Assembly (NCBI GenBank): GCA_041675085.1
Contig: JBAYUN010000001.1
Location: 87,347 to 151,346 of the forward strand
Source: Minisyncoccota bacterium
GTDB lineage: Bacteria > Patescibacteriota > Minisyncoccia > Phycocordibacterales > UBA9973
DNA length: 64,000 nucleotides
Direction of reading: 5' to 3'
Part shown: in pieces, positions 42,198 through 64,000 of the stretch
Numbering within the stretch: the stretch's first letter is position 1
Layout: each line of letters opens with the position of its first letter
Translations under genes and position numbers: made by a program
Notes under the pieces: model-generated
What the model saw: only the letters and a program-made list of their open reading frames with translations
What the model was told of the DNA's origin: nothing
The model's database searches: none

Positions 42198-42235
42198 AAG
42201 CCTTTTCATTAATTAATGAAAAGGCTTTTTATTTT
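42198..42235. terminator. Intrinsic terminator (14-bp stem AAAGCCTTTTCATT/AATGAAAAGGCTTT plus T-run), likely bidirectional
   Basis: Read directly. Confidence 0.55.
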
Positions 42236-42265
42236 GCCAATAAATTGAATAAACATCTCTTACCG

Positions 42266-43060
42266 TTACAACCTTTTTAAAATATCTTTTTTATAATGCT
42301 TCAAATAAGCCACAAGGATAAAGCTAATAATAACCAACAAGAACCATGAAGTTATCTTAGACGTTGAGACCACGGACCATTGATGAATTTGACTCGGATA
42401 TTTCCAAGCACCGAAATACGTAGCGATATTCTCTGCGATCCAGATAAAGAAAGCGATAAGCAGAAAGGCGACGTTCATATACATAGAGCGGACTTTATTT
42501 GTCACAATAAAATTAACTTTAGTTTTAAAGAATAAAATAAACACAAAGAATATCAAAAACCAACGGGCGTCATATATATAATGATTGGTAAAGAAGTTCA
42601 AATAAATCAAAGCACATAAAATCACGCTAAGAAGATAATGTTTATAATTCACGAGTTCTAATTTCATAATCTTCCAAGACTGACTGATATAACTACCTAC
42701 CGCTGCATACATAAACCCACTATATAGAGGCACAGTACCTATTTTAAAGAATCCCTCTTCCGGATAACTCCAAGAAGCAACTCCTGGACTCGTCTTGTAG
42801 AGTTCGAGCACAAGACCGATAATGTGGAAAAGGAATATTACTTTAACCTCATCTTTAGTTTCTAATTTTGTAAAATATAAAATAGCTTGAATGACAACAG
42901 CTGAAATAAAAAGAAAATCATAACGAGCAAAATTTTCTAAAGGAATATAATTTGAAATAAAAAGTAAAATAAAAAACAAGCCCGCAAATATAGACGCTCG
43001 GGCTTGTTTGATACCAAAAATCCAAAATTCGTAAATATAATTTTTAAACTTGCTCGACAT
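42266..43060 (-). CDS. Polytopic membrane protein (DUF817-like)
   Basis: 264 aa, about 8 TM. Confidence 0.4.
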   Translation of the reverse strand: MSSKFKNYIYEFWIFGIKQARASIFAGLFFILLFISNYIPLENFARYDFLFISAVVIQAILYFTKLETKDEVKVIFLFHIIGLVLELYKTSPGVASWSYPEEGFFKIGTVPLYSGFMYAAVGSYISQSWKIMKLELVNYKHYLLSVILCALIYLNFFTNHYIYDARWFLIFFVFILFFKTKVNFIVTNKVRSMYMNVAFLLIAFFIWIAENIATYFGAWKYPSQIHQWSVVSTSKITSWFLLVIISFILVAYLKHYKKDILKRL

Positions 43061-43475
43061 ACTTTTTAAAATTCTCGAGTATTGCAGACCAGCCTGCTTT
43101 TTGAAGTTCTACGCTATTAGTTTCTTCTGGGGAGAATTCTTCTACTATTTTAGTATCACCGTTTTCTAAAGTTGAGAAAAATATATCGCATTCTCTGTTA
43201 TTTTCTTCCCCTTCAGCTTTATCCATAACATATTTAATACTTTTATATTCTTCTACTTCTGTATATGTACCAGTAAAATCAAAACTCTCACTACCGTCTT
43301 TGGCAGACATGCGAGTCAAAAATCTCCCACCCACCTTCAAGTCATTCTCAGCATGAGGGCATTCCCAAGTATCCGTAGCAAAAGCCCAACTTTTAATACT
43401 TTCTGGATCGTTCCAGTGTTTCCAAACTTTTTCAATATTTGCATGCACAATTGTTTCTATATGTATTTTTTGCAT
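43044..43475 (-). CDS. SRPBCC / AHSA1-like (activator of Hsp90 ATPase homolog) domain protein
   Basis: IETIVHANIEKVWKHWNDPESIKSW...FDFTGTYTEVEEYKSIKY pattern. Confidence 0.55.
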   Translation of the reverse strand: MQKIHIETIVHANIEKVWKHWNDPESIKSWAFATDTWECPHAENDLKVGGRFLTRMSAKDGSESFDFTGTYTEVEEYKSIKYVMDKAEGEENNRECDIFFSTLENGDTKIVEEFSPEETNSVELQKAGWSAILENFKKYVEQV

Positions 43476-43496
43476 AATTTTATTATACTACGAAAT

Positions 43497-43865
43497 TTAA
43501 GATTTTAATTTCCCAGATTCTTCTTTTAATCTATGTTTAATAATCTTGGTAATCAGCGATATTGGCAAGGGCTTATCATAAGGAAACCGGATGCAACCTT
43601 TTGAATAGCTAATCCCCTTTTTAGCCAGTTCTTCCTCAAAAGGTTTTATGCCTGACGGAGACGGATAGAATCCGAGATGCCCTTTCATAGCAGCATAATG
43701 CACAAAGTTCTTGCTATTGAGCTCTACAGTCGGCATACCATATTTTATAGATTCTACGCCTTTTGGGACAAGTTTGTTTACCAAAGTTCGCATTTCTTTT
43801 AATTTAGGCAGAAAATCTTTTGGTGTGTCTTTTATGTATTCATTTATATTTTTGTAATTTTTCAT
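43497..43865 (-). CDS. DUF1801 (YdhG/YjdC-like) protein
   Basis: INEYIKDTPKDFLPKLKEMRTLV...KYGMPTVELNSKNFVHYAAMKGHLGFYP...GCIRFPYDKPLPISLI. Confidence 0.55.
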   Translation of the reverse strand: MKNYKNINEYIKDTPKDFLPKLKEMRTLVNKLVPKGVESIKYGMPTVELNSKNFVHYAAMKGHLGFYPSPSGIKPFEEELAKKGISYSKGCIRFPYDKPLPISLITKIIKHRLKEESGKLKS

Positions 43866-43876
43866 ATGTATTTTTT

Positions 43877-44251
43877 TTAATTAATCTTAACCTTTCGTAA
43901 AATTTTCTCCATATCTCGCCCTTTTGCCAATTCGTCTACCAATTTATCCAAATACCTAACTTTTTGAGTTAAAGGATTTTTAATATCTTCAATTCGATAA
44001 CCACATATCATCCCTTTTATTAAATGTGCATTTTGATTTATTTTTGCCTTATGGAAAAATTCTTCAAAAGTAGCTTTGTTGTTTATAAATTTCTTTAGAT
44101 TAGTTTCGGTATATCCTGTGAGCCATTTGATAACCTTATGTAGCTCTTCTTTTGTTCTACCTTTCTTCTCTACCTTTATTACATAATAAGGATAAACAGA
44201 AGAAAAAGTCATCCCCGCCATACGTTCATCATGCTTTTTTAAATCTTTCAT
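43877..44251 (-). CDS. DUF2200 family protein
   Basis: MAGMTFSSVYPYYVIKVEKKGRTKEELHKVIKWLTGY matches DUF2200. Confidence 0.6.
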   Translation of the reverse strand: MKDLKKHDERMAGMTFSSVYPYYVIKVEKKGRTKEELHKVIKWLTGYTETNLKKFINNKATFEEFFHKAKINQNAHLIKGMICGYRIEDIKNPLTQKVRYLDKLVDELAKGRDMEKILRKVKIN

Positions 44252-44292
44252 AATTTTATTATATCAGATTATGTTTTATAAAATCTAGAATT

Positions 44293-44712
44293 TTATAGCT
44301 TTAAATACACTTCGAAAGCATTTGCTAAATTATCTATAATATTATAATTCTTATAGTCTTCTGGTCTAATCCAGATATACTCATCATGATCTTTACTTAA
44401 AACTATATTTTCATTCAAAGTTTCGCAAACGAAATATACACCTATCACTTGCCAGTTCTCGTCTTTAACTTTTGGTCTCCATTCCCCAACGCAAAAAGAT
44501 TGCAAAACTTGAATCTCTAAACCAGTCTCCTCATAAACTTCCCTTTTCAAACTCTCTTCCAATTTCTCTCCGGGTTTTATTCGTCCTCCTGGGACGTCAT
44601 ATTTAGCAAAATTAGTCCCATCTTCATAACTTGAAGATTCTTTCAATATCAAAATCTCTCCTTTTGTATTTTTAATAAAACCTTTACTCGCGACGAATAG
44701 TTTGTAATCCAT
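44293..44712 (-). CDS. NUDIX hydrolase
   Basis: Nudix box GGRIKPGEKLEESLKREVYEETGLEI. Confidence 0.75.
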   Translation of the reverse strand: MDYKLFVASKGFIKNTKGEILILKESSSYEDGTNFAKYDVPGGRIKPGEKLEESLKREVYEETGLEIQVLQSFCVGEWRPKVKDENWQVIGVYFVCETLNENIVLSKDHDEYIWIRPEDYKNYNIIDNLANAFEVYLKL

Positions 44713-44719
44713 GCTTTTA

Positions 44720-45238
44720 TTATATTAAATTTAAAGATTTATAATCCTTTATTAAACTTAAAGCTGTTTGTTTTTCAGTTGGGTTTTCTATATTATCTGC
44801 CCAGTTAGTTGCTTCAGTCAAATCGTCATTTGCCAAAAAATATAATAATTTTGTTATTTGATTCGAATTACGATTATCTTTATATTCAAGAGCTTTAGTT
44901 GAATACAATTTTGCTTTTTCTTTATCTTTCTTTTGAAAAAGAGCGCAACTAGTAGCGTGATGATACCAAAACCAAAGTATCGATTCTTTAGTATCTTTTT
45001 CTTCTTTTGTTAAACCAATATCTCCAACATTCTCTATCAAATTTTTAATTTTATTTATAATCAAATCAGAGTCCTCATAATCCCAAGAATAACTATCCAT
45101 CAATCTTTGATCTTCTTGAAAATACAAATCATGCAATTCTGCTGAATTTAGAACATCAAAAGTAGAATAAATAGAGTGCAAAGGACTTTCGTTTTTAGGT
45201 AAATCCCCTTCTGAATTATTTGTAAATGATTCTTTCAT
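44720..45238 (-). CDS. Hypothetical helical (TPR-like?) protein, 172 aa
   Basis: ORF with own leaderless promoter; no motif. Confidence 0.4.
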   Translation of the reverse strand: MKESFTNNSEGDLPKNESPLHSIYSTFDVLNSAELHDLYFQEDQRLMDSYSWDYEDSDLIINKIKNLIENVGDIGLTKEEKDTKESILWFWYHHATSCALFQKKDKEKAKLYSTKALEYKDNRNSNQITKLLYFLANDDLTEATNWADNIENPTEKQTALSLIKDYKSLNLI

Positions 45239-45270
45239 GCTTTTATTATACTATAAATTTAGAATTTATT

Positions 45271-45293
45271 TTAGCAAGGACGGTCCTTGCTAA
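45271..45293. repeat. 23-bp perfect palindrome TTAGCAAGGACGGTCCTTGCTAA, copy 1 of 3
   Basis: Identical copies at 45271-45293, 48381-48403 and 49258-49280. Confidence 0.7.
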
Positions 45294-45296
45294 TTA

Positions 45297-45335
45297 ACAA
45301 AACCCTTACTCGCGACGAATAGTTTGTAATCCATG
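45297..45335 (-). repeat. Duplicate (37/38 nt) of the NUDIX gene start plus upstream; forms a 14-codon remnant ORF (MDYKLFVASKGFVN) that ends inside the palindrome
   Basis: aaaacc[t/c]ttactcgcgacgaatagtttgtaatccatg present at 44677-44712 and 45297-45335. Confidence 0.65.
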
Positions 45336-45346
45336 TTTTGATTATA

Positions 45347-45742
45347 CTACAAATTCTCATCAAGGAACTTTTTTAAAGCAATCAAATCTTTCTTTTCTTT
45401 GTCATAATGATAAGAAATAATTCCTACTGATTCGGCGGATTTTGCAGCATCAGAATTGTGTTCAAAATAAATAACATCATTTTTATCAAAATTATATGTA
45501 TCAAGCAAGGTTTTAAAATAAACAGGTTCTACTTTATCAGGATTATGCTTCATTGTAAAAACAGGATAAGGCACAGAATCAAGACCAAATTTAATGATTT
45601 GCTCATCGTCAGCATTAGTTAGGATAAGTTTTGGATTTGGATATGTTTCAAGTAAATCAAATAATTCTTTATATTGAATATAATTACCTGCCTCGTTTTT
45701 TAGAATTATAGTATTCACCGCATCAATAAGTATCGTTTTCAT
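45347..45742 (-). CDS. Small HAD-like fold protein with degenerate motif I (putative)
   Basis: ILIDAVNTI (DxxxT instead of DxDxT), VIYFEHNSDAAKSAESVGI motif-IV-like; weak. Confidence 0.3.
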   Translation of the reverse strand: MKTILIDAVNTIILKNEAGNYIQYKELFDLLETYPNPKLILTNADDEQIIKFGLDSVPYPVFTMKHNPDKVEPVYFKTLLDTYNFDKNDVIYFEHNSDAAKSAESVGIISYHYDKEKKDLIALKKFLDENL

Positions 45743-45754
45743 ATTTTTATTATA

Positions 45755-46081
45755 CTACAATCTAAATTCAAAATTAATAATCTTAACTTCTGTGTCTTTA
45801 TTTACTTTATCTCCATAGAATTTCTTAAAATCCGAATACATATCTTCATCAGAATCATACCGAGCGTGCCCTACCCAGTCTTCTTCATTCAAAGTACCAA
45901 GGGTTTTAATTTTAAGAGAAATTATTTTCCCATATCCAAAAGTCTCAAGAGTTTCTTTGTTTATAAATTCAAGCTCATCCCCAAGTTTTAAATCCTTATC
46001 ATCAAAAAGCCTCCAAGTAGTAGTCTTTTCTCCTGTCAGTATTTTATCAACTAAATCTGAATTAAATTTTATGGGTTTCAT
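45755..46081 (-). CDS. ASCH (PUA-like) domain protein
   Basis: VDKILTGEKTTTWRLFDDKDLKLGDELEF resembles the ASCH core. Confidence 0.45.
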   Translation of the reverse strand: MKPIKFNSDLVDKILTGEKTTTWRLFDDKDLKLGDELEFINKETLETFGYGKIISLKIKTLGTLNEEDWVGHARYDSDEDMYSDFKKFYGDKVNKDTEVKIINFEFRL

Positions 46082-46095
46082 TATATTGCTTACAT

Positions 46096-47022
46096 TTAAT
46101 TATTGATATATTTAGGAAATACCAACTGGAACATTTCAGCCTCTTTTAACAACCATTCAAAGTAATCGCTCCATTTAGCCTCATTTTCAAAATCACCTTT
46201 TAGGGAAATCTTAATTCTACTAGCCTTCTTGTTAGGTAACTCCATCCATTCTAATTTTTCATTTAATTCACCTTCTATTTTATCTTTATTACTCAAGATA
46301 TTAGCATACAGCTCTTTATTATTTGAGATATAAATCTCTACACCAAGAAACCCGTCTCTTGAATTAAGAGTCAAAGAAAGACTACATTCACTGCTACCAA
46401 TACTTATGTTTGTCCAATGTTGAGGATAACTTTTTTGAAAACGCAATTTAGTATTATTTTGTTTTGCAAAACTTTTGAATTCATCCCAAAATTGAAGTTG
46501 TTTAATTTTAGTTTCAGTTAGCTCTAAACTTTCAGTAGTACTCTTTAAGACTTTTGCCCAATCATTGGGCTTTGAAATTATTTCAAACTTAGGAGCAAAA
46601 GGAGAATCAGCAATTTGCCAAAGTTCTATCTTTAACAAATAGAAACCAATCTCTTCATTGGTATTTTCATTAAGCCAGTCTATTGCTTTTCTATGTTCTT
46701 CTCTAACATCCTTAACTACCCATAAAATAATCCTTGCATCATAACCAGAAGCATAAGTGATAAGTTTACCTAAATGATCATGATTAGTTATCTCTAACTG
46801 ATTTTCAATAATTATTTTATGACCAGTACTTTCTTCTTCTGCCAGAATATCAACATTAAAACTCCCAACTTTTGCTTCAGTCTGAATTAATTTTATGTCA
46901 AAACCAATTTCATCACCCAAGAGATCAAGATTTTCTTCTTGTGCTAACCATTTAGTAAAGTCATTAGCTTCATGTTTCCAACCTTCACGTAATTCAATTT
47001 TTTTAAGTTTTCCTAAATTCAT
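46096..47022 (-). CDS. PD-(D/E)xK / NucS-like nuclease-fold N-terminal domain plus DUF4268-like C-terminal domain protein
   Basis: ELREGWKHEANDFTKWLA..LGDEIG..IQTEAKVGSFNVDILAEE..GHKIIIENQL (D..E.Q) pattern. Confidence 0.4.
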   Translation of the reverse strand: MNLGKLKKIELREGWKHEANDFTKWLAQEENLDLLGDEIGFDIKLIQTEAKVGSFNVDILAEEESTGHKIIIENQLEITNHDHLGKLITYASGYDARIILWVVKDVREEHRKAIDWLNENTNEEIGFYLLKIELWQIADSPFAPKFEIISKPNDWAKVLKSTTESLELTETKIKQLQFWDEFKSFAKQNNTKLRFQKSYPQHWTNISIGSSECSLSLTLNSRDGFLGVEIYISNNKELYANILSNKDKIEGELNEKLEWMELPNKKASRIKISLKGDFENEAKWSDYFEWLLKEAEMFQLVFPKYINN

Positions 47023-47310
47023 ATTAATATTTATTAATGTTTTATTAATTTACCTACATATCCCTAATAAGTTCCAATTTCTTGTCTCTACTCCATCGCT
47101 TCAACTCCGCCTCTCGTTTTCTGGATTCGTTATATGTCTCGAATTCTTCTTTGTATTTTAGGATTACTGGTCGGCGGATTTTTGTATAATGGGCACCAGA
47201 TTTTGAATTATTATGCTATACCAATCTACGTTCTAGGTTATTTGTAGACCCTACGTACAAGGTTTTGTCTTTGCATTCTAAGATATAAACAAAATACATA
47301 ATAAGTAAAA

Positions 47311-47706
47311 CTAAAAATTACCGCTCAAGTACAAACCTAAAACTGTCATAGACAGCATAAGAATAGCAGGAATACTTTTTACAAAAGAATCTCTGACTTT
47401 AATATGCATACCGATAGCTCCAAGCATAAGGATAGCTAGGATTGCCAAAGCAGGCAAACCAAACAAAGCTAAAATATTTGCACTAAATAATCCGAGAATC
47501 ATAACGAGAGATATTGCTAGTTTTAAAAAGCCAACAATATACATAAACCAAACAGGTAGACCATAAGCAGAGAATTCTTCTTGCATGTTTTTTGCTCCCG
47601 CGCCACGATATTTTGTAGCCATAGAGAATCTCAAAATCCAAACATTAATAAGTCCAAAAGCAATGATAATTTGCAAAAAAGGCAGAACGAAAATATTTAT
47701 TTCCAT
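47311..47706 (-). CDS. DoxX-like 4-TM membrane protein
   Basis: 131 aa, four TM helices. Confidence 0.45.
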   Translation of the reverse strand: MEINIFVLPFLQIIIAFGLINVWILRFSMATKYRGAGAKNMQEEFSAYGLPVWFMYIVGFLKLAISLVMILGLFSANILALFGLPALAILAILMLGAIGMHIKVRDSFVKSIPAILMLSMTVLGLYLSGNF

Positions 47707-48011
47707 ATGAAAAAAATTATTAATAATATATACAAATTATCAACTAATATACATCGCTTTGCAAGGGTTTTAAATCTATTTAAATATCTAGTGCTTATAG
47801 CTATTAGTCAAAATGCACACTAGTTGTTTGCAATATAATTCTCTACTGCATGAATATCGATTAACTGATGTGGATGTTCATCGTCAGCTAGTTCTTTTTT
47901 ATAAGCAACTAAATCACGAGGATCAATAAGTGAAATTTCAATAGCATTGATTGTTTTAGATATTGTGGGGAATTTTCTAAAATGATCTTTTGTTTGAAAC
48001 CATTCTGTCTG

Positions 48012-48332
48012 CTATTTATTACTCATTTTCAAAGTATCAATATCTGTAATATCAATATCTTGATTATTATAGTTTAAACACAAGGTATCGCAATCCCACT
48101 TTGCATTTAAATAATGTTTTGGTCCAGAAGTAATATAATCTTTAGCTTCCGAAACGATGATAGGAAAATATTCTCCAGGCAATGAAAAATCTAAATCATT
48201 TACAGGACGAGATGAGCCATATACATGCGCAGCAAACCCTCCTCCAATACGGTAAGGTATATTGTGTTTATTTAATATACCTACGATCCATTTAAGTGCA
48301 TTTATTGTTTTTTCTTCTAATTTTATTTCCAT
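48012..48332 (-). CDS. ANT(2'')-like nucleotidyltransferase, N-terminal 106 aa; an in-frame TAG is followed by a further 63 open codons (47823-48011), so this is a disrupted gene or read-through candidate. ATG start at 48332 (MEIKLEEK); ORF track used an upstream TTG.
   Basis: IPYRIGGGFAAHVYGSSRPVNDLDFSLPGE is close to the ANT(2'')-Ia core LPLWIGGGWAIDARLGRVTRKHDDIDLTFPGE; downstream frame checked codon by codon. Confidence 0.5.
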   Translation of the reverse strand: MEIKLEEKTINALKWIVGILNKHNIPYRIGGGFAAHVYGSSRPVNDLDFSLPGEYFPIIVSEAKDYITSGPKHYLNAKWDCDTLCLNYNNQDIDITDIDTLKMSNK

Positions 48333-48380
48333 AAGAATATTATAATACAATCAATTTATTTTTTTGAGTTTTAGCGAGTT

Positions 48381-48403
48381 TTAGCAAGGACGGTCCTTGC
48401 TAA
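48381..48403. repeat. 23-bp palindrome copy 2, with tandem GCTAAAACTC duplication at one end
   Basis: Read directly. Confidence 0.7.
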
Positions 48404-48434
48404 TTATTTCCATATGAAAAAAATTATTAATAAT
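48404..48434 (-). repeat. Duplicate of the DoxX-like gene start region (47697-47727), giving a 9-codon remnant (MEIISKDRPC) that runs into the palindrome
   Basis: tttccatatgaaaaaaattattaataatat present twice. Confidence 0.6.
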
Positions 48435-48510
48435 ATTTTAAGTATACCATTTCGACCGTACTTGAGCACCTTTAAAAGCAGTAAATTTAAGTTATTTTTT
48501 ATTAATCTAC

Positions 48511-49209
48511 CTAAGAGGTAAATCTACATTTTGGAAAGGCTGAACACCCTAAGAATTTACCAAACTTACCTTCTTTTTCCAAAAGCTCATTGCCACATTT
48601 AGGACAAACTTGTTTAATATTATTTGCTTTAACAGTATCAACCTTTTTAACATTTTGAGCTATCCTGACATATTCAATCAACTTAAAGCTATCAACAAGT
48701 TCTATTGGTTTATCTTCTGCGAATTTTTCTGCTTCAAGAGTAAATTTATTTGTTGTTATAAAATACCCTTTACCATTCGCAACATGATCTGCTAATGCTC
48801 CATAAAAATCTCTCACAGCTCCAACTGGTACTTGGCTAGTGATGAACTTTTTACATTGTATGTAATTTATTATTCCGTTTTTTTCTGCAGTGACATCAAT
48901 TCCCCCATCATGTGACCTACCGACAGCATTTGTCTTATAGCCAAGTTGAAAGAAAAGATCAGCTATATATTTTTCAAATTCATTTGATTTCATTCCTCTA
49001 AGTTGCTGTAAAAGTTCTCTATCAGAACGCCATTCTTGACCATTTTTTATATTTCTTTTTCTTTTCCATTCAGCAATTTTATCTGGAACAATAACTTCAA
49101 GTAATATCTTTAATAACAATAATAATCCTAATCCAACCCAAATAGGCCATAAAGCAAAAAATCCGTGTAAAAAACTTTTATACAAAACAGAATAATCAAT
49201 AATTTGCAT
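48511..49209 (-). CDS. Membrane-anchored Mrr-type restriction-endonuclease catalytic domain protein with C-terminal topoisomerase-type C4 zinc ribbon
   Basis: GRSHDGGIDVTAEKNG..INYIQCKKF..VPVGAVRDFYGAL..KGYFITTNKFT (Mrr_cat pattern); CPKCGNEL..CSAFPKC zinc ribbon. Confidence 0.6.
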   Translation of the reverse strand: MQIIDYSVLYKSFLHGFFALWPIWVGLGLLLLLKILLEVIVPDKIAEWKRKRNIKNGQEWRSDRELLQQLRGMKSNEFEKYIADLFFQLGYKTNAVGRSHDGGIDVTAEKNGIINYIQCKKFITSQVPVGAVRDFYGALADHVANGKGYFITTNKFTLEAEKFAEDKPIELVDSFKLIEYVRIAQNVKKVDTVKANNIKQVCPKCGNELLEKEGKFGKFLGCSAFPKCRFTS

Positions 49210-49257
49210 AATTATATATTATCATAAAAGTGACAAAAGTGACCCAAAAGCAATACT

Positions 49258-49280
49258 TTAGCAAGGACGGTCCTTGCTAA
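49258..49280. repeat. 23-bp palindrome copy 3, with tandem TAATTAGCAAG duplication at one end
   Basis: Read directly. Confidence 0.7.
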
Positions 49281-49324
49281 TTACTTGCTAATTACAGATT
49301 TTTTAATACAATTTCTACTTATTT

Positions 49325-50221
49325 TTACGATTTCGTATATTCTAAAATAGTCTCATATACGATATCATCAGATATTTCATTAATATGACTCTTTATGATT
49401 TCTTCTTTTTCTTGATAAATATTAGAAAAAATTACATACATTTTCTCGTAAGCATCTTGAATACTTTGATACTTATTCTTTTTATTTAAATTTTTCTCAT
49501 CTTTAATTAGTTCATTTAAATAATTTCTAAAATAATTAATCTGATACATGGACTCTAGAATTATTTTACTTTGCATAGGATCATTCGCTAATTTTTTATT
49601 CCTATCAGCACTCTCACCTCCCCAAGTTTTGAGTAATTTTTCTGCACTAGATTGCCTTGTACCAACTACAACTTTTGGCACCAAAAGCTCTTTGTGCTCA
49701 CCTGTACTAGGATCTTCAAAATATTTCAACTTAGGAATAAGACCATTTTTTAATAACAATTTAATACCATCTAATTTAGAAATAATATTTCTTTTATCAT
49801 TAGCAAAAGCCACATCAACACCAAGACCGAGATATTCCTCAGAATCTTCTTCTCTGTATATAGAAACTATATCTACGCCGTATTTAATATCATCATACCT
49901 AGAAGCAGGGACTACTTCTGTATTTTCACCTAGCCAATTATTAGACTCTATCTGATCAGCTAAAACAGCTTCTAGTAAAGAAGAGAGTTCTGTTTTATAT
50001 TTTTGTTCTTCATTGTTATGGAAATTTTCTTCTATCTTTCGCATCTCTTCTAAGTCAGCAAGAATTTCACTTTCTGGATAGATATCAACAAAGTCCATTT
50101 CTTTTGGACGAAATTGATCAACAATTTTTGCCTTCTTCTCATGCAAATGTTTCATGAGTTTTGGATTCTCTGATAAAGGAATAGGTTTGATAAGATTCAA
50201 ATTTTCAAATTTAAAATTCAT
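49325..50221 (-). CDS. Hypothetical protein, 298 aa, acidic, no recognisable domain
   Basis: Clean ORF; upstream carries the GTCACTTTT x2 motif. Confidence 0.4.
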   Translation of the reverse strand: MNFKFENLNLIKPIPLSENPKLMKHLHEKKAKIVDQFRPKEMDFVDIYPESEILADLEEMRKIEENFHNNEEQKYKTELSSLLEAVLADQIESNNWLGENTEVVPASRYDDIKYGVDIVSIYREEDSEEYLGLGVDVAFANDKRNIISKLDGIKLLLKNGLIPKLKYFEDPSTGEHKELLVPKVVVGTRQSSAEKLLKTWGGESADRNKKLANDPMQSKIILESMYQINYFRNYLNELIKDEKNLNKKNKYQSIQDAYEKMYVIFSNIYQEKEEIIKSHINEISDDIVYETILEYTKS

Positions 50222-50357
50222 TGCTGTGATGATTGAGCTAGAACCCCATGGCTCCGTACCCTGTAATATTATTTTTAATACTTATATTGTATCATTTCTA
50301 CACTACTTGAGCACGTCAAAAAGTGACAAAAGTGACACAAATCAAGAAAAAATAAAA

Positions 50358-50388
50358 AAGCCTAAGTTTTTCTTAGGCTTTTATTTTA
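50358..50388 (-). terminator. Intrinsic terminator after the 413-aa gene (AAGCCTAAG/CTTAGGCTT, flanked by A and T runs; bidirectional)
   Basis: Read directly. Confidence 0.6.
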
Positions 50389-50406
50389 GTAAATTTATTG
50401 TAATAC

Positions 50407-51648
50407 CTATACTAATGGTATTTCAGGGGATACATACCCATCCGCACATTCTATCCAAAAATTTGCAACATCAAAATTTTCAATTTCAGAAGTTTCAATT
50501 TTATCAACACTATTCCAAAAACTTTCTGTTGTTACTGGTCTCAGATACACAGTTTTTTGATTTGGCTCCGTTAAATCTAATTGAATACCAATAACGTTAA
50601 CATGAACACGGCTACGAATTATATTCACTACTTCAGAAGTATACAAAGTTTTATGTACTGCTTTTGCCCAATTAATGAACCTTGTTTTATTTTCTTCGTC
50701 ACTTAATTCAAAGTTTGGCTCACAAGTTTTCCATAGATCTCTTAAACTTTCTGAATTATCAATAATACTTTGCAGTTGTTCTACAATACCAGGAGGTATT
50801 ATAAATTTAATACTTTTTTCAGGAATTGTACCGCTTCCAATCACATTAACTTGTGGAAAAATCTTATGTGAATGCATCATAAAAAAAGATAGACTATTTT
50901 TATGAGGAACAGCATCAATAATCTCTGATGAACTACTCTGGAGCCAAGACATCCCACCGCTTGCAGATGGTCCACTTAATTCCAAGCCACCATTTTTTGT
51001 ATTAACAAAAGCAAAAGATTTTGCACCAGCCAGATTCCGTATTCTATCCAAAGATTCTCCAATATTACAAAATTCTTTACAGGTACTAATTAAATAATCA
51101 ATATCTTCCATTCTTTCTTTCTTAATTAATCCATTTAATTTCTCTCGTATTCCCTCTAATGCTTGAATAAATGCAAGAGAAGGGGTCCCAATATGAGAAA
51201 ACCCAACATTACTACTAAAATTTCTAAATGGTGAAGATTCTGAAGAGAGTTGAGGTAAAGCTACCTTATTTTTTTGTAACCTTGCTTCAACTTCATCTTT
51301 GACCTCTAGCCAATTATTCATAAGTTGTTCAAATTCACGTGCAAGATGAAGTGTGAAAAGATTTGGATTCATTACTCCAGAACTTGCATACATGTATTTT
51401 TTATTTTCATGCTCTACATAATCACCAGCAGCTATACCAATTGCTGGCTTCCGTCCAGGTATAAAATGTACATTTTCACAGAAAATAATTAAATACATTA
51501 ACGATATAACGTCATCAGGAAAGGTTAAAGGTTCCCCAAATTCAGCTACTTCAAATGATGTCTCACTTTTCATTTGTGCAAGGGCATCATTTACTTTTTT
51601 GATAATTGTTAAGTCGCTAAACAATTCATCTAATTTTGGATGTTTCAT
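50407..51648 (-). CDS. Hypothetical protein, 413 aa, no recognisable domain
   Basis: Clean monocistronic ORF with own terminator and a palindromic site near its promoter. Confidence 0.4.
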   Translation of the reverse strand: MKHPKLDELFSDLTIIKKVNDALAQMKSETSFEVAEFGEPLTFPDDVISLMYLIIFCENVHFIPGRKPAIGIAAGDYVEHENKKYMYASSGVMNPNLFTLHLAREFEQLMNNWLEVKDEVEARLQKNKVALPQLSSESSPFRNFSSNVGFSHIGTPSLAFIQALEGIREKLNGLIKKERMEDIDYLISTCKEFCNIGESLDRIRNLAGAKSFAFVNTKNGGLELSGPSASGGMSWLQSSSSEIIDAVPHKNSLSFFMMHSHKIFPQVNVIGSGTIPEKSIKFIIPPGIVEQLQSIIDNSESLRDLWKTCEPNFELSDEENKTRFINWAKAVHKTLYTSEVVNIIRSRVHVNVIGIQLDLTEPNQKTVYLRPVTTESFWNSVDKIETSEIENFDVANFWIECADGYVSPEIPLV

Positions 51649-51854
51649 TTTTATTTATTTAAGTTTTGCAATATTGCTTTTTAGAAACCAAACTGACATC
51701 CAAAAAGCAATACTGAAACTTGATTTCAAAGATCTAATATGCTTTATATATAACATATTTTAAGTTTTTGTCAACAGCAAATCATGATACTATGGGCAAT
51801 ATGTGTTGTTTTGATCGTAGTGATGTATGGGAAATTTTCGTCCAAAATTCTGCC

Positions 51855-52769
51855 TTAACAATTAAGAGCCTTTCTCCATCCAGAATCCAAAGCATCTTCT
51901 TCAGAACAGAACCATTTCTCCCCTTTTGATTCATCAATGATAGTCGCATTATATGATCCACAACCTGGCACATGATATATGTATTCTTTCTTTGAATTGA
52001 TATTACCTTTAATGATGCAAGAGTTATTTTGATTTGTTTCTGTTGAAGTTACTGGAGTAGATTGGGTTTGAGTAGTAGTCGATGCGACAGGAGCGACTAC
52101 AATAGGTGCTACAGTGACTCCATTACATTTATCTCCCCACAATCCAGCTTTAGTGTCCTCTGCTTGTTTTTGAGCGTTCTTGTATTCTGTTTGATATTTG
52201 TATTTAGAATCGTATGTATATTCATATGCATATCCAGTTTGAATCATTTTAAGTCCAAAGTTTGTGCCATCTTCTAGAAAGATATATCTAAGTAATCTAC
52301 TATATTTATCTCTATCTCCTTGAGATGAATCTGATTCTAGCTTTACTGATTTATTAGATAACAATGATTTAGCTTGATTCGATGCTTCAATACCAAAACA
52401 CTCTACAGGTTTTCTAGGATCTACTGTTTCAGGAGTATTAATACCTATCATTCTTATTCTCTCAATGGTCCCATTGATATCTACGTCTATTGTGTCTCCG
52501 TCTACTACTCTGGTTACTTTGTAGTATTGTTGTGTATTTGTAGGTGCTACTGTAACAGTCTCAGGAGCTTTGGGAGTTTCTACAACAGGAGCTATTGGTA
52601 ATACTTCTTTCAAGATTTCATCGATTGATTCTTCTTCTGCTAATTCAGTATTTATAGCTTCCACTTCTCCAATCTTATCTTCTACAGACGGACCACCGCT
52701 TGAGATTATTGAGATGAAGATTATTGGGATTATTATGTAGAGGATGTATTTGTAGTTTTTAATTTCCAT
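51855..52769 (-). CDS. Secreted thermonuclease (SNase/staphylococcal-nuclease fold) with C-terminal Cys-containing domain
   Basis: Signal anchor; TRVVDGDTIDV...RMIGINTPE...ECFGIEASNQAK...DRDKYSRLLRYIF SNase catalytic pattern; C-terminal CIIKGNINSKKEYIYHVPGCGSYN..WFCSEEDALDSGWRKA. Confidence 0.75.
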   Translation of the reverse strand: MEIKNYKYILYIIIPIIFISIISSGGPSVEDKIGEVEAINTELAEEESIDEILKEVLPIAPVVETPKAPETVTVAPTNTQQYYKVTRVVDGDTIDVDINGTIERIRMIGINTPETVDPRKPVECFGIEASNQAKSLLSNKSVKLESDSSQGDRDKYSRLLRYIFLEDGTNFGLKMIQTGYAYEYTYDSKYKYQTEYKNAQKQAEDTKAGLWGDKCNGVTVAPIVVAPVASTTTQTQSTPVTSTETNQNNSCIIKGNINSKKEYIYHVPGCGSYNATIIDESKGEKWFCSEEDALDSGWRKALNC

Positions 52770-52880
52770 TTATCAAATATACTTATTATTTACATAAAAG
52801 TAAAATATGAGTAACACAGAACTCATTTAAATAAAGAAGAAGTGATAAAATTAGTTTTAGAGAGATTGAAATAACTAAAC

Positions 52881-60828: not shown

Positions 60829-61491
60829 CTAATCTCGCAATTGCCAAAGAATCAAATCCAGTATTTTAACTTTAGTGATCTTGCTTGTTTCTGTTATGTT
60901 GGTGTAAGGATATTTTAAGTTAAAGTAATCAAATATATTCTTAGCACCTTCTGTTGGAATAAATTCTTCGAAAATGTCTACTAACTTATTATAAAAATTT
61001 TCTGTTTTTTTAAGTCGATCTGAAATATCTTCTAATGCACTTATTTCTTGGTATTCTTCGTTAATAGAAAGATTTATCCTAATCCATTTATCTATTACTG
61101 GTAAATTAGGATTGATGGTTGCTAAAAGCTTACTAGAAAATGAAGCATCTACAGTGTTTGTTTTTGTATATAGAATTTTGAGTATTTCTCCAAAATCTTT
61201 TTTCTGTTCCTTTGAAATTTCTAATAGAGTAAAATACTCTTTTTTCCAAGAAATATCTTTAAATCGAATTCCATAAAAATTGCTAAACATTTCTTGAAAC
61301 AAAATGTCTTTACTTGGGTTTGTAAGATGTAAGCATCGTTGAATGCTTAGATATTGTTTTAGACCTTTCTTTGCATTTGTTAAAATAGATTCAATTTTTG
61401 ATCCTTTTTTTGATTTGTTGACAGTGAGATCAGAATTCAAAATTCCGTATTCAATAAATAAATCTTGAATGATATTTTGTTTTGTATTCAT
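60829..61491 (-). CDS. Hypothetical protein, 220 aa
   Basis: Clean ORF. Confidence 0.4.
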   Translation of the reverse strand: MNTKQNIIQDLFIEYGILNSDLTVNKSKKGSKIESILTNAKKGLKQYLSIQRCLHLTNPSKDILFQEMFSNFYGIRFKDISWKKEYFTLLEISKEQKKDFGEILKILYTKTNTVDASFSSKLLATINPNLPVIDKWIRINLSINEEYQEISALEDISDRLKKTENFYNKLVDIFEEFIPTEGAKNIFDYFNLKYPYTNITETSKITKVKILDLILWQLRD

Positions 61492-61775
61492 AAACTTTGG
61501 ACGGTTTTATTTAGCCAAGTGGTAGCAAAAAGCTCCTAGCCAGGCCGACTACACCCTTGAGTGTAACCCATACCCCTTTCGAGATATGACCGTCCAAAGT
61601 AGCTCTGACTAAGAGTTCTTTACTTTGGACGGATTTATGACCATATCCTATAAACATTAAGGTTTTTAGGGGTTAGGTCGCTTATTAAGTTATAAAATAA
61701 TTCTAGCACATTTCAAGTGCTTTTGACATCCTAGCTTAGATTAGGAATTAGTGGTAATTAGTTACCAACAGATGA

Positions 61776-63413
61776 TTAAAAACCAAGCTTACGGTTCTTT
61801 AGTCTTCGAGTTACCAACTTAGCGTGAATAGTCTTAAGTTGGGCAATTTCTTCGTTACTCATTTTATAATAATCTTTTAAGATTATTTCGTCGGTGTATC
61901 TAAGTACATCTTTGATGCCAACTTTAGTTCTTAGCATATTGTCTAGTTTTTCTAACTGAGATTGTTTAATTTTTTTACAGTAAGGTATGGAGAGGTTTTT
62001 ATATTCATTAGGAGTTAGCTCAAGAACACCGCCACCATAATAACGACCTTCTAATTCAGCAAATATTAAAGTTAAAGTGTTATAGAAAGAAAATACTAAA
62101 TCGCTAACCTTATTCTCGTCTTTCATTCTAATTCTATAAAAAGCGTCAGTCACATACGACTTCGCTTCGTTCATAGCCATTCTCGGAAAGAGATTAGATC
62201 TCTTTGTGAAAATTCCTTCTGAAACCCAAACTGATGGAACAAAATACCAATTATTACGCAGTTTACATTTGTATCTTTGGTCTATTAATCGATCTTCTCC
62301 AATTTTTAAGTACTCTTTAGCTTCTTTTGAAAAAGATTTTTGATTAACGTCTTCAAATCTTAAAAAGAAAGCGGGTTTACCTCTTTTGGAAATATTTTTT
62401 TGATCAACCTTTGTAAAATTGTTTGTAGATGGCATTAATGAGCCTTTTTGTAGAATTGGTTTTGCTATATTTTGAAGTTTATATTTTTCCACAATTTCTT
62501 TATCTACTATAAAGTAGTCATTCGCCGCAGTAACAATACCTACCTCGGCTCGACAGTAATTCTTGATAGGCAAAAATCGAGTCTTAAGAGTATCTAAAAA
62601 TTTTAGTTCCTTATCCAGCAAAATATAGTTAGTCCATTTATCAAGAGTTTGTCTATGAATATTACTATTCTCTTCTACATAGGTAGGTTCTTTTAAATCT
62701 TCTAGTTTATCTACATGGTAAAAAGAGACACCGGGTGTTTGTTTTTTTGCACAAATCAATATTATTACATCTTGCTCGATGTCAGGAAAAATAAGTTCAT
62801 TAAAAGCAAATATTTCAATCTTCTGAAAGTTGTCTCTTAAGTAACCTCTAAGCTCTTTAGCATATATAACCTGCAACAGCTCAGCTGGTAACACGAAACA
62901 AATAACCCCATTCTCGTTAAGAGACTGAACACCTGAAATAAGAAAACTAGTCCAAATGTTTTTTATACTTTTAGGACTCAAATTTGCTCCCTTATGAATT
63001 GCTTCACAGGATTCAATTTGTTTCTTTGTTAGGTAGTTACTTTTTATATATGGAGGATTACCTATAACTAAGTCAAACTTCTTTTTGTTCTTCTTATTAA
63101 ACTCTAAATAATCTTCATTAAAATAGTTAATTTTCTGTGAAGCAAGGAGACGCTTCTTGTTTTTCTTTTTTGAAATTTCTATTTCCTCCTTATCTTTTTC
63201 AATAGCATCTATAGTTATATTTTTAGGAAGCTTGAATCTTCCCTTAAACGTAGTATTGGAAAACATGGAATCAAAAAAGTTTCCATCACCAGAGCTTGGC
63301 TCTAGAACGTTTATACTGTTACTGAAATCATATTTATCAAACAAATGAAAAACTATGAAATCTGCTAGTAACGAGGGCGTATAATATGCACCATTTTCCT
63401 TGTTTGATATCAT
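61776..63413 (-). CDS. Gamma-class N6-adenine DNA methyltransferase (Eco57I/TaqI-like) with C-terminal target-recognition region
   Basis: GAYYTP (motif X), LEPSSGDGNFF (motif I), VIGNPPYIKS (motif IV) in X-I-IV order. Confidence 0.8.
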   Translation of the reverse strand: MISNKENGAYYTPSLLADFIVFHLFDKYDFSNSINVLEPSSGDGNFFDSMFSNTTFKGRFKLPKNITIDAIEKDKEEIEISKKKNKKRLLASQKINYFNEDYLEFNKKNKKKFDLVIGNPPYIKSNYLTKKQIESCEAIHKGANLSPKSIKNIWTSFLISGVQSLNENGVICFVLPAELLQVIYAKELRGYLRDNFQKIEIFAFNELIFPDIEQDVIILICAKKQTPGVSFYHVDKLEDLKEPTYVEENSNIHRQTLDKWTNYILLDKELKFLDTLKTRFLPIKNYCRAEVGIVTAANDYFIVDKEIVEKYKLQNIAKPILQKGSLMPSTNNFTKVDQKNISKRGKPAFFLRFEDVNQKSFSKEAKEYLKIGEDRLIDQRYKCKLRNNWYFVPSVWVSEGIFTKRSNLFPRMAMNEAKSYVTDAFYRIRMKDENKVSDLVFSFYNTLTLIFAELEGRYYGGGVLELTPNEYKNLSIPYCKKIKQSQLEKLDNMLRTKVGIKDVLRYTDEIILKDYYKMSNEEIAQLKTIHAKLVTRRLKNRKLGF

Positions 63414-64000
63414 CTAAACTATTTCTAAATAATTTACTTCTAAGTAAGAAAAATACTTCTGGTATTCTTCAGCTAATTCTGCAATCCCCTCATTTACTTC
63501 TGCCTTAATCGTCTCTGGCAAATTCAAAGTATTTTTTAGTGTAATCAACTTTTTTTGCTGCTCAGCAATCTTTTCTATACGCCAATACAATTCATACCGT
63601 TTTAGATATAATTTAAGTTTTTTCCACATATATCTAGCGATGGGATGATCTTTGGGTACTATTCCACCACAATCAGTTCTTTCAAAATAATCGTTGAAAT
63701 CGACATCGCATGGATGGAAATAACCTTCCTTGCCTACAATTGATACATCTGGATCATCTGAAGGCCAGTCATTACTTTTAATTCGATTTACTTGAGGAGA
63801 TGCGTAAATAAGGTTTTCGTATACATGCTCTTTTGCCGAAAACTTACTAAGTTTAATTGCATCTAAAATCTTTGGGTTTTGAGGAGCGAAATGATCAATT
63901 TGAAATCCTCCTGCCCACCACACATCTTTGCAGTCAGTAAATCCACATCTTCCATCGTAGTCTTGTCGCAAAATCTCCCTATAATCTTTATAGTTATTTT
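63414..64000 (-). CDS. HNH-family endonuclease, 5'-truncated by window end; putative restriction partner of the adjacent methyltransferase (its TAG abuts the methyltransferase ATG)
   Basis: RCGFTDCKDVWWAGGFQIDHFAP...NLIYASPQVNRIK HNH core; frame stays open to position 64000. Confidence 0.55.
   Translation of the reverse strand, partial: NNYKDYREILRQDYDGRCGFTDCKDVWWAGGFQIDHFAPQNPKILDAIKLSKFSAKEHVYENLIYASPQVNRIKSNDWPSDDPDVSIVGKEGYFHPCDVDFNDYFERTDCGGIVPKDHPIARYMWKKLKLYLKRYELYWRIEKIAEQQKKLITLKNTLNLPETIKAEVNEGIAELAEEYQKYFSYLEVNYLEIV

Follow-up and report, generated by a model that had tools for sequence, protein, structure and literature searches.

A probable recent nonsense allele of a small nucleotidyltransferase-fold gene in a Minisyncoccota bacterium

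Background

Several small nucleotidyltransferases of described structure or function may be compared with the gene considered here. TM1012 of Thermotoga maritima is a putative nucleotidyltransferase with deposited structures (PDB 2ewr/2fcl/4hx0), which in the literature was found only as a modelling template. MenT1 (Rv0078A) of M. tuberculosis is a nucleotidyltransferase toxin that modifies tRNA. The substrate pocket of ANT(2'')-Ia and LnuA is formed in part by the C-terminal region of the protein.

The locus described here lies in a 64-kb stretch of DNA from a Minisyncoccota bacterium, the whole of which was analysed and is referred to as the window. An initial annotation, made from the sequence alone, had described an ANT(2'')-like nucleotidyltransferase gene at 47823-48350, split by an in-frame amber codon, and had named a fresh pseudogene, a sequencing error and programmed read-through as possible explanations. 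Homologues, a predicted structure, related loci and the genomic surroundings are used below to weigh these explanations. The first of them, in the form of a real and very recent nonsense inactivation of an accessory gene, is probably correct, and programmed read-through is argued against.

Results and discussion

An amber codon at position 107 of a 170-codon gene

The features of the locus are listed in Table 1. On the minus strand, 47823-48350 translates as LYYNIL-MEIKLEEK...DTLKMSNK, followed by the stop and then by QTEWFQTKD...HAVENYIANN. The in-frame TAG (CTA on the plus strand) occupies codon 107, and the approximately 30 nt around it read AGTAATAAATAGCAGACAGAATGG. It is a substitution, with no indel, at a site that is not part of a homopolymer run. 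The true start of the gene is the ATG at 48332-48330, because MEIKLEEK opens all close homologues; the TTG at 48350, taken as the start in the list of open reading frames (ORFs), puts six extra codons 5' of it. Thus, the split gene is present in the span first given for it, as both the sequence and the full-length homologues attest, but the minus strand has to be specified, the six surplus 5' codons removed and the start placed at 48332.

Between the amber codon and the terminal TAG there are 63 in-frame sense codons. These had been noted to lack ATG, and they lack GTG and TTG as well, so that no restart codon of these three kinds is present. At the base composition of the window (33% G+C), about 0.075 stops per codon are expected, and the chance of an open extension of 63 codons is therefore approximately 0.008. 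Homology is far stronger evidence for a single gene than these odds.

A search with the 170-aa read-through product, in which a residue stands in for the stop, gave 289 matching proteins (162-182 aa), among them Patescibacteria proteins of 165-176 aa that align with it over their full length; the best match, of 170 aa, has 86% identity at 100% coverage (E = 1.7e-96). Those matches that carry a name are annotated as hypothetical proteins and come from Patescibacteria (Nomurabacteria, Paceibacterota, and Yonathbacteria). The alignment with 25 full-length homologues is colinear across the stop and extends over all 170 residues, which agrees with the earlier view that the downstream 63 codons are the C-terminal part of the gene. 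A lack of similarity in these codons had been named in advance as evidence to the contrary; what was found is that the gene's own family aligns throughout. The alignment contains 43 invariant columns, of which 11 are 3' of the stop (W111, K115, P138, D140, L141, Y144, K145, L148, Q156, D159, and Y166). The family is uncharacterised and widespread in Patescibacteria (Paceibacteria, Nomurabacteria, Yonathbacteria, Kaiserbacteria, and others). It comprises 587 clusters at 50% identity (E <= 1e-3), mostly of 150-175 aa.

Table 1. Features of the interrupted gene and its immediate surroundings (window coordinates)
Feature	Coordinates	Strand	Basis
DoxX-family gene	47311-47706	-	DoxX_2, E = 5.5e-11
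36-nt direct repeat, downstream copy; overlaps start codon and 5' leader of the DoxX-family gene	47694..47729	.	repeat search
Normal terminal stop TAG, at the end of the closest homologues (...IENN)	47820..47822	-	sequence, alignment
Nucleotidyltransferase codons 108-170, C-terminal lobe (three strands, last two long helices), undecayed	47823..48011	-	sequence, alignment, model
In-frame amber codon TAG, codon 107	48012..48014	-	sequence, 29 related genes
Nucleotidyltransferase codons 1-106, N-terminal alpha/beta core	48015..48332	-	sequence, alignment, model
Perfect 10-bp palindromic hairpin TTAGCAAGGAC-G-GTCCTTGCTAA, between upstream repeat copy and nucleotidyltransferase start	48381..48403	.	
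36-nt direct repeat, upstream copy; 35/36 identical to 47694-47729	48401..48436	.	repeat search

The codon replaced by the stop

Related loci were collected from species-representative genomes (30) and metagenomes (54), with a few added by exact look-up; the sample holds 63 distinct full-length genes, including that of the window. None of the other 62 has a stop at codon 107. The residue in this column is E in 23 of the 25 aligned homologues and D in the other two. At the nucleotide level, codon 107 is GAA in 16, GAG in nine, AAT in two and GAT in one of 29 related genes. Since 25 of the 29 have GAA or GAG, the TAG derives from a Glu codon by a point change. A single step would lead to it from GAG, by G->T on the coding strand (C->A on the plus strand at 48014). 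The four closest relatives, however, have mostly GAA (P0001, P0002, and P0004; GAG in P0003), so that a real mutation requires either a GAG intermediate or two steps.

The truncated 106-aa product of the 170-codon gene has been deposited as a hypothetical protein (MFA7285382.1). Every database entry for the truncated protein goes back to a single contig of a Candidatus Paceibacterota metagenome-assembled genome (MAG; ENA ERZ27247358, k141_557398, 529,268 bp). Among the database records, the allele was found in no independent assembly, and a single assembly carries the sequence.

Predicted fold and profile matches

The closest intact homologue was modelled with AlphaFold from a 57-sequence alignment (pLDDT 95.7, pTM 0.88). 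Residues 1-104 form an alpha/beta core in the model (H7-22, E28-30, H31-37, E46-51, H53-66, E67-75, E79-88, E91-97, and E102-104), and the C-terminal lobe consists of strands 111-113, 124-128 and 131-135 and helices 138-148 and 156-169. In a Foldseek ranking TM1012 is closest, and MenT1, ANT(2'')-Ia and LnuA are more distant. On the basis of the model, the gene product is predicted to be a small (170 aa) nucleotidyltransferase-fold enzyme of the TM1012 type.

The nucleotidyltransferase signature hGGx(9-13)DhDh is present near the N-terminus as IGGGFAAHVYGSSRPVNDLDFS, with G30-G32, D46 and D48 invariant throughout the family. The core motif that had been reported for the N-terminal 106 residues is indeed found there, as IGGGFA...NDLDFSLPGE, and in the alignment these residues also include the invariant acidic positions D46, D48, D94 and D97.

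The profile searches place the family near, and below the cut-offs of, described ones. The nearest weak profile is DUF2204 (PF09970), for which the window protein scores 14.1 bits (E = 0.037) and its relative P0001 18.1 bits, against a gathering cut-off of 20.3. Weak hits to it are given by 41 of the 57 family members (best E = 1.7e-4), and two database relatives have a precomputed PF09970 hit. The window protein has no hit to PF10706 (Aminoglyc_resit) at E <= 1, and it scores 11.8 bits with the NCBIfam model of ANT(2'')-Ia (NF000064), below the curated cut-off of 350 bits. P0001 reaches 14.6 bits with PF10706, the curated cut-off of which is 21 bits, and 52 of the 57 family members hit this profile weakly (best E = 3.9e-5). 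Conversely, the family profile finds LnuA with E = 0.0046 (residues 4-116) and ANT(2'')-Ia with E = 0.2. An hhalign comparison of the family with AadB aligns only 43 N-terminal columns (GGG...DxD), with a probability of 84%, for an AadB sequence confirmed at residues 9-53 only. Homology to the C-terminal substrate-binding half of ANT(2'')-Ia was not found. Considering the scores below cut-off and the alignment confined to the N-terminal part, the relationship of the protein to ANT(2'') and LnuA is one of fold, and it is not a demonstrated member of either family. Accordingly, the original designation 'ANT(2'')-like' holds for the fold and the motif, but not for family membership.

Disruptions in related genes

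Other members of the family are also damaged. The gene in locus L027 (3001-3480) has a TAG at the invariant W111, four codons past codon 107, together with four consecutive changed residues, and the TAG is directly followed by CTA ATG, a possible restart. The gene in L071 (1-459) has a TAG at the invariant Q156. Frameshifts near residues 50-58 are present in L083 and L085/L086, N-terminal remnants lie within long contigs in L030 and L031, and a degraded extra copy is found in L023/L070. By a count over the collected loci, about one locus in ten is damaged. From such frequent damage among its relatives, the family is evidently dispensable and often decaying.

Three in-frame stops occur among about 63 distinct genes, and each of them is TAG; the expected shares of TAG are 0.235, 0.386 and 0.359. 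The product of these shares gives P ~0.03 for a pattern of three events that was noticed post hoc and is not counted as evidence here. Two of the three stops are four codons apart, at the lobe boundary, and all three are in the last 40% of the protein.

An apparent truncation hotspot, formed by cluster representatives ending at about residues 105-118, was considered and rejected, as the list of the best 150 favours long truncations and two of the representatives (P0229 and P0240) are frameshifted. These two and P0358 have truncated or frameshifted tails from about residues 106-112, perhaps owing to A-rich DNA or to ranking bias. Other truncated cluster representatives may be cut by contig ends.

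Conservation downstream of the stop

Among the 79 columns conserved in at least 90% of the 25 relatives, the window gene deviates at two, I47L and G90N, both of them N-terminal. None of the 21 such columns in the C-terminal part is changed. Against the six nearest genes, the codons upstream of the stop (1-106) have a dN/dS of 0.06-0.10, with L005 not computable, and those downstream of it (108-170) one of 0.10-0.16. The corresponding values between intact genes are 0.06-0.14 and 0.07-0.14. The dN/dS of the tail cannot tell a fresh mutation, an error and read-through apart, because the divergence (14% of residues from the nearest relative) long predates the stop.

Since the untranslated tail carries no additional damage, the stop must be very recent if it is genuine; that is, the lesion is very young, or not real. 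The undecayed tail should thus not be taken as an indication of one particular origin of the stop, as it fits an error or read-through equally well as a very recent mutation.

Genomic context

The gene belongs to a closely packed cluster of small accessory and defence genes of single-domain type on the minus strand, at about 42200-52800. The cluster includes genes for SNase, an Mrr-type nuclease with a topoisomerase-type zinc ribbon, DoxX, DUF4268, ASCH, NUDIX, DUF2200, DUF1801, AHSA1 and DUF817, and it resembles a variable accessory or defence island. Eight proteins encoded next to the gene were looked for in 30 related genomes, and none of them was found within 3 kb of the homologous gene; synteny is therefore uninformative on the stop.

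The two copies of the 36-nt direct repeat are 707 nt apart and exactly bracket the nucleotidyltransferase gene. On the minus strand the upstream copy contains ATGGAAATAA, a duplicate of the doxX start with its promoter-like -10 region (hit 48430->48403). From the duplicated start runs a mini-ORF of 10 codons (48381-48413, minus strand; ATG GAA ATA ATT AGC AAG GAC CGT CCT TGC TAA), and its second half forms the hairpin of Table 1, about 50 nt upstream of the nucleotidyltransferase start. The hairpin looks like a terminator on the plus strand. In two contigs with a 91% identical DoxX protein, another gene is upstream of doxX, the leader is diverged, and no nucleotidyltransferase gene is present at this place; a clean empty site for an insertion was not found at these closest doxX loci.

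In related genomes the gene is frequently found near a tRNA gene. Upstream of the gene, at a distance of 30-2300 nt, there is a tRNA-Gln gene (anticodon CTG or TTG) in 12 of the 29 species representatives with sufficient flank, and in 22 of the 49 loci scanned (including L002, L003, L010, L012, L017, L020, L023, L024, L026, L027, L030, L031, and L038). This linkage is far above chance, because the genomes probably carry one or two such genes, which is the number we assume for these relatives. It could be due to ancestral synteny, to an insertion hotspot or to a functional link. The window copy is outside the usual place next to tRNA-Gln and, itself bracketed by the direct repeats, lies within an accessory island, and it therefore appears that a gene segment of 671 bp may have been inserted or relocated into its present site. 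Such an origin is plausible and fits a gene that is expendable in this genome.

Some further features of the window and of the related loci may be mentioned. In the closest relatives, a block of about 70-90 nt after the stop is conserved (TGCTCAAAGACCGTCGAAATG...AATAACCTTAC...CTTGACC...; L036:700-800, L038:927-1040, and L039:555-660). It scores below every Rfam gathering score and is absent from the window copy. In L033 (3504-4427) and L034 (3332-4246), a gene for an APH-family kinase is located one gene upstream of the nucleotidyltransferase gene, and the APH-like gene has NUDIX, HAD/PNK, AAA-kinase, Ham1 and 2'-5' RNA ligase genes as neighbours. At 61547-61679 on the minus strand of the window there is a full-length LOOT RNA (RF03000; 79.3 bits against an Rfam gathering score of 46.4), which lies within the gap between an ORF at 60829-61491 and the Eco57I-like methyltransferase gene at 61776-63413. 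The latter belongs to a minus-strand unit (61776-63998) in which an HNH-like ORF, running off the end of the window, ends in a TAG (63414-63416) and is followed directly and in frame by the ATG of the 545-aa methyltransferase of Eco57I/N6_Mtase type. The two genes look like a restriction-modification pair.

TAG as a stop codon in the window

TAG is an ordinary stop in the window. The stops of 71 long ORFs are TAA in 54, TAG in 13 and TGA in four, and TAG also ends the nucleotidyltransferase gene itself at the homologous terminus. A screen for amber-split genes, which covered all same-frame ORF pairs separated by one stop in the 64-kb window, gave no other case, the plausible pairs being separate genes. 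Three of these were considered and rejected. The 131-aa ORF that follows the ASCH gene (45755-46081) has its own ATG. The HNH-like ORF and the Eco57I-like methyltransferase gene adjoin as TAG-ATG, and the methyltransferase begins at its usual GAYYTP motif. The CAP-domain gene is followed by 82 open codons, and this extension gives no family hit. Genome-wide reassignment of TAG was likewise rejected, as TAG ends both these 13 of 71 long ORFs and the nucleotidyltransferase gene, and the window has no other genes with an in-frame TAG.

Origin and consequences of the stop

The explanation to be preferred is a real, very recent nonsense inactivation of an accessory gene, by conversion of the Glu-107 codon to TAG; this is probably what happened. 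A release factor would end translation normally at codon 107. The product would be a fragment of 106 residues, which would keep the catalytic core motifs and lose the 63-residue C-terminal lobe. The strong conservation of this lobe, with its 11 invariant residues, implies that the intact enzyme needs it, and judging by the sequence the allele is most likely null or severely hypomorphic. Against this, the model indicates that the 106-aa fragment may be a complete minimal nucleotidyltransferase core, so that the loss of function may be less than total.

The chief competing explanation is that the TAG is a consensus error of assembly or sequencing, or a minor strain variant, and that the gene is intact with GAG (Glu-107). 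Such an origin would account for a gene that is otherwise perfect, apart from I47L and G90N in its conserved columns, for a tail in which dN/dS is not above that between intact genes, and for the occurrence of the sequence in one assembly only; moreover, one base change gives back the Glu of the relatives. However, the change is a substitution away from homopolymers, with no indel, and it is located in a 529-kb contig, the name of which (k141_...) suggests a short-read MEGAHIT assembly. Substitution errors in a short-read consensus are rare in comparison with real nonsense alleles in accessory genes. In addition, the 64-kb window showed no further disrupted genes, and the independent disruptions in other genomes show that loss of this family is common. 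A consensus error is therefore rather unlikely, and the stop is most likely a genuine allele.

It may also be considered that the truncation is tolerated or even selected, the 106-aa product being functional as a stand-alone minimal nucleotidyltransferase core. In the model the stop separates the core, whose last strand (E102-104) ends just ahead of it, from the C-terminal lobe, so that G-G-G...D-x-D and D46, D48, D94 and D97 all lie upstream of it. The amber codon of L027, four codons further on and with its possible restart, and the confinement of the three nonsense codons to the last 40% of the protein are in line with this. The conservation of the 63 C-terminal residues nevertheless speaks against a dispensable lobe, as does the contribution of the C-terminal part to the substrate site in ANT(2'')-Ia and LnuA. 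The frameshifts at residues 50-58 are inside the core, and the disruptions are thus not confined to the boundary; furthermore, the pattern consists of just three nonsense events and was seen post hoc. A functional truncation must be regarded as quite improbable.

Programmed or leaky read-through of the amber codon, by a near-cognate tRNA-Gln(CUG) or a suppressor tRNA and with a low level of full-length enzyme, is the least probable of the explanations and very improbable as such, since the stop is conserved in none of the 62 other distinct genes, TAG terminates this same gene and others in the window, no tRNA was found in the 64-kb window (ARAGORN), the anticodons of the tRNA-Gln genes neighbouring the relatives are CTG or TTG and never CTA, the 116 nt around and after the stop fold like shuffled sequences (z = -0.65) with no stable RNA structure predicted, and no report of read-through in Patescibacteria was found in the literature. 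In its favour are the full preservation of the tail, the C that follows the stop (TAG-CAG), the restriction of the family's three in-frame stops to TAG, and the frequent linkage of the relatives to tRNA-Gln. A stop followed by C is a weak termination context in E. coli context studies. A related proposition, that an amber codon is unusually well tolerated in this family through partial UAG read-through, for instance by the tRNA-Gln encoded upstream, is hardly to be expected either. If it were true, a TAG near the boundary of core and lobe would yield a 106-aa minimal nucleotidyltransferase together with low-level full-length enzyme.

For a recent nonsense allele as the preferred explanation, the practical consequence is that the deposited annotation of MFA7285382.1 hides a disrupted 170-aa gene, for which a pseudogene flag or a check of the reads is due. 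The meaning of the finding is limited, as it adds another recently inactivated accessory gene in a bacterium with a reduced genome. The linkage to tRNA-Gln is a concrete lead for the characterisation of this compact and highly conserved family of TM1012 fold.

Comparison with known systems

With TM1012 the family has the fold in common over the whole chain, at a sequence identity of just 13-14%. ANT(2'')-Ia and LnuA are similar in length to the family proteins, their identity to the family is 14-15%, and the N-terminal motif IGGGFA...NDLDFSLPGE of the window protein corresponds to IGGGWA...DDIDLTFPGE in AadB. The comparison with ANT(2'')-Ia does not extend to the surroundings, as a resistance context is absent around the window gene. 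The identity to MenT1 is 14%, and no conserved antitoxin-like neighbour adjoins the family genes.

As an allele, the window gene is not distinct from ordinary nonsense null alleles in anything except its youth and its freedom from secondary lesions. Like ordinary nonsense pseudogenes, it has one premature stop at a sense codon of its orthologues, keeps its reading frame, is located in a variable island, and has relatives that carry lesions of their own.
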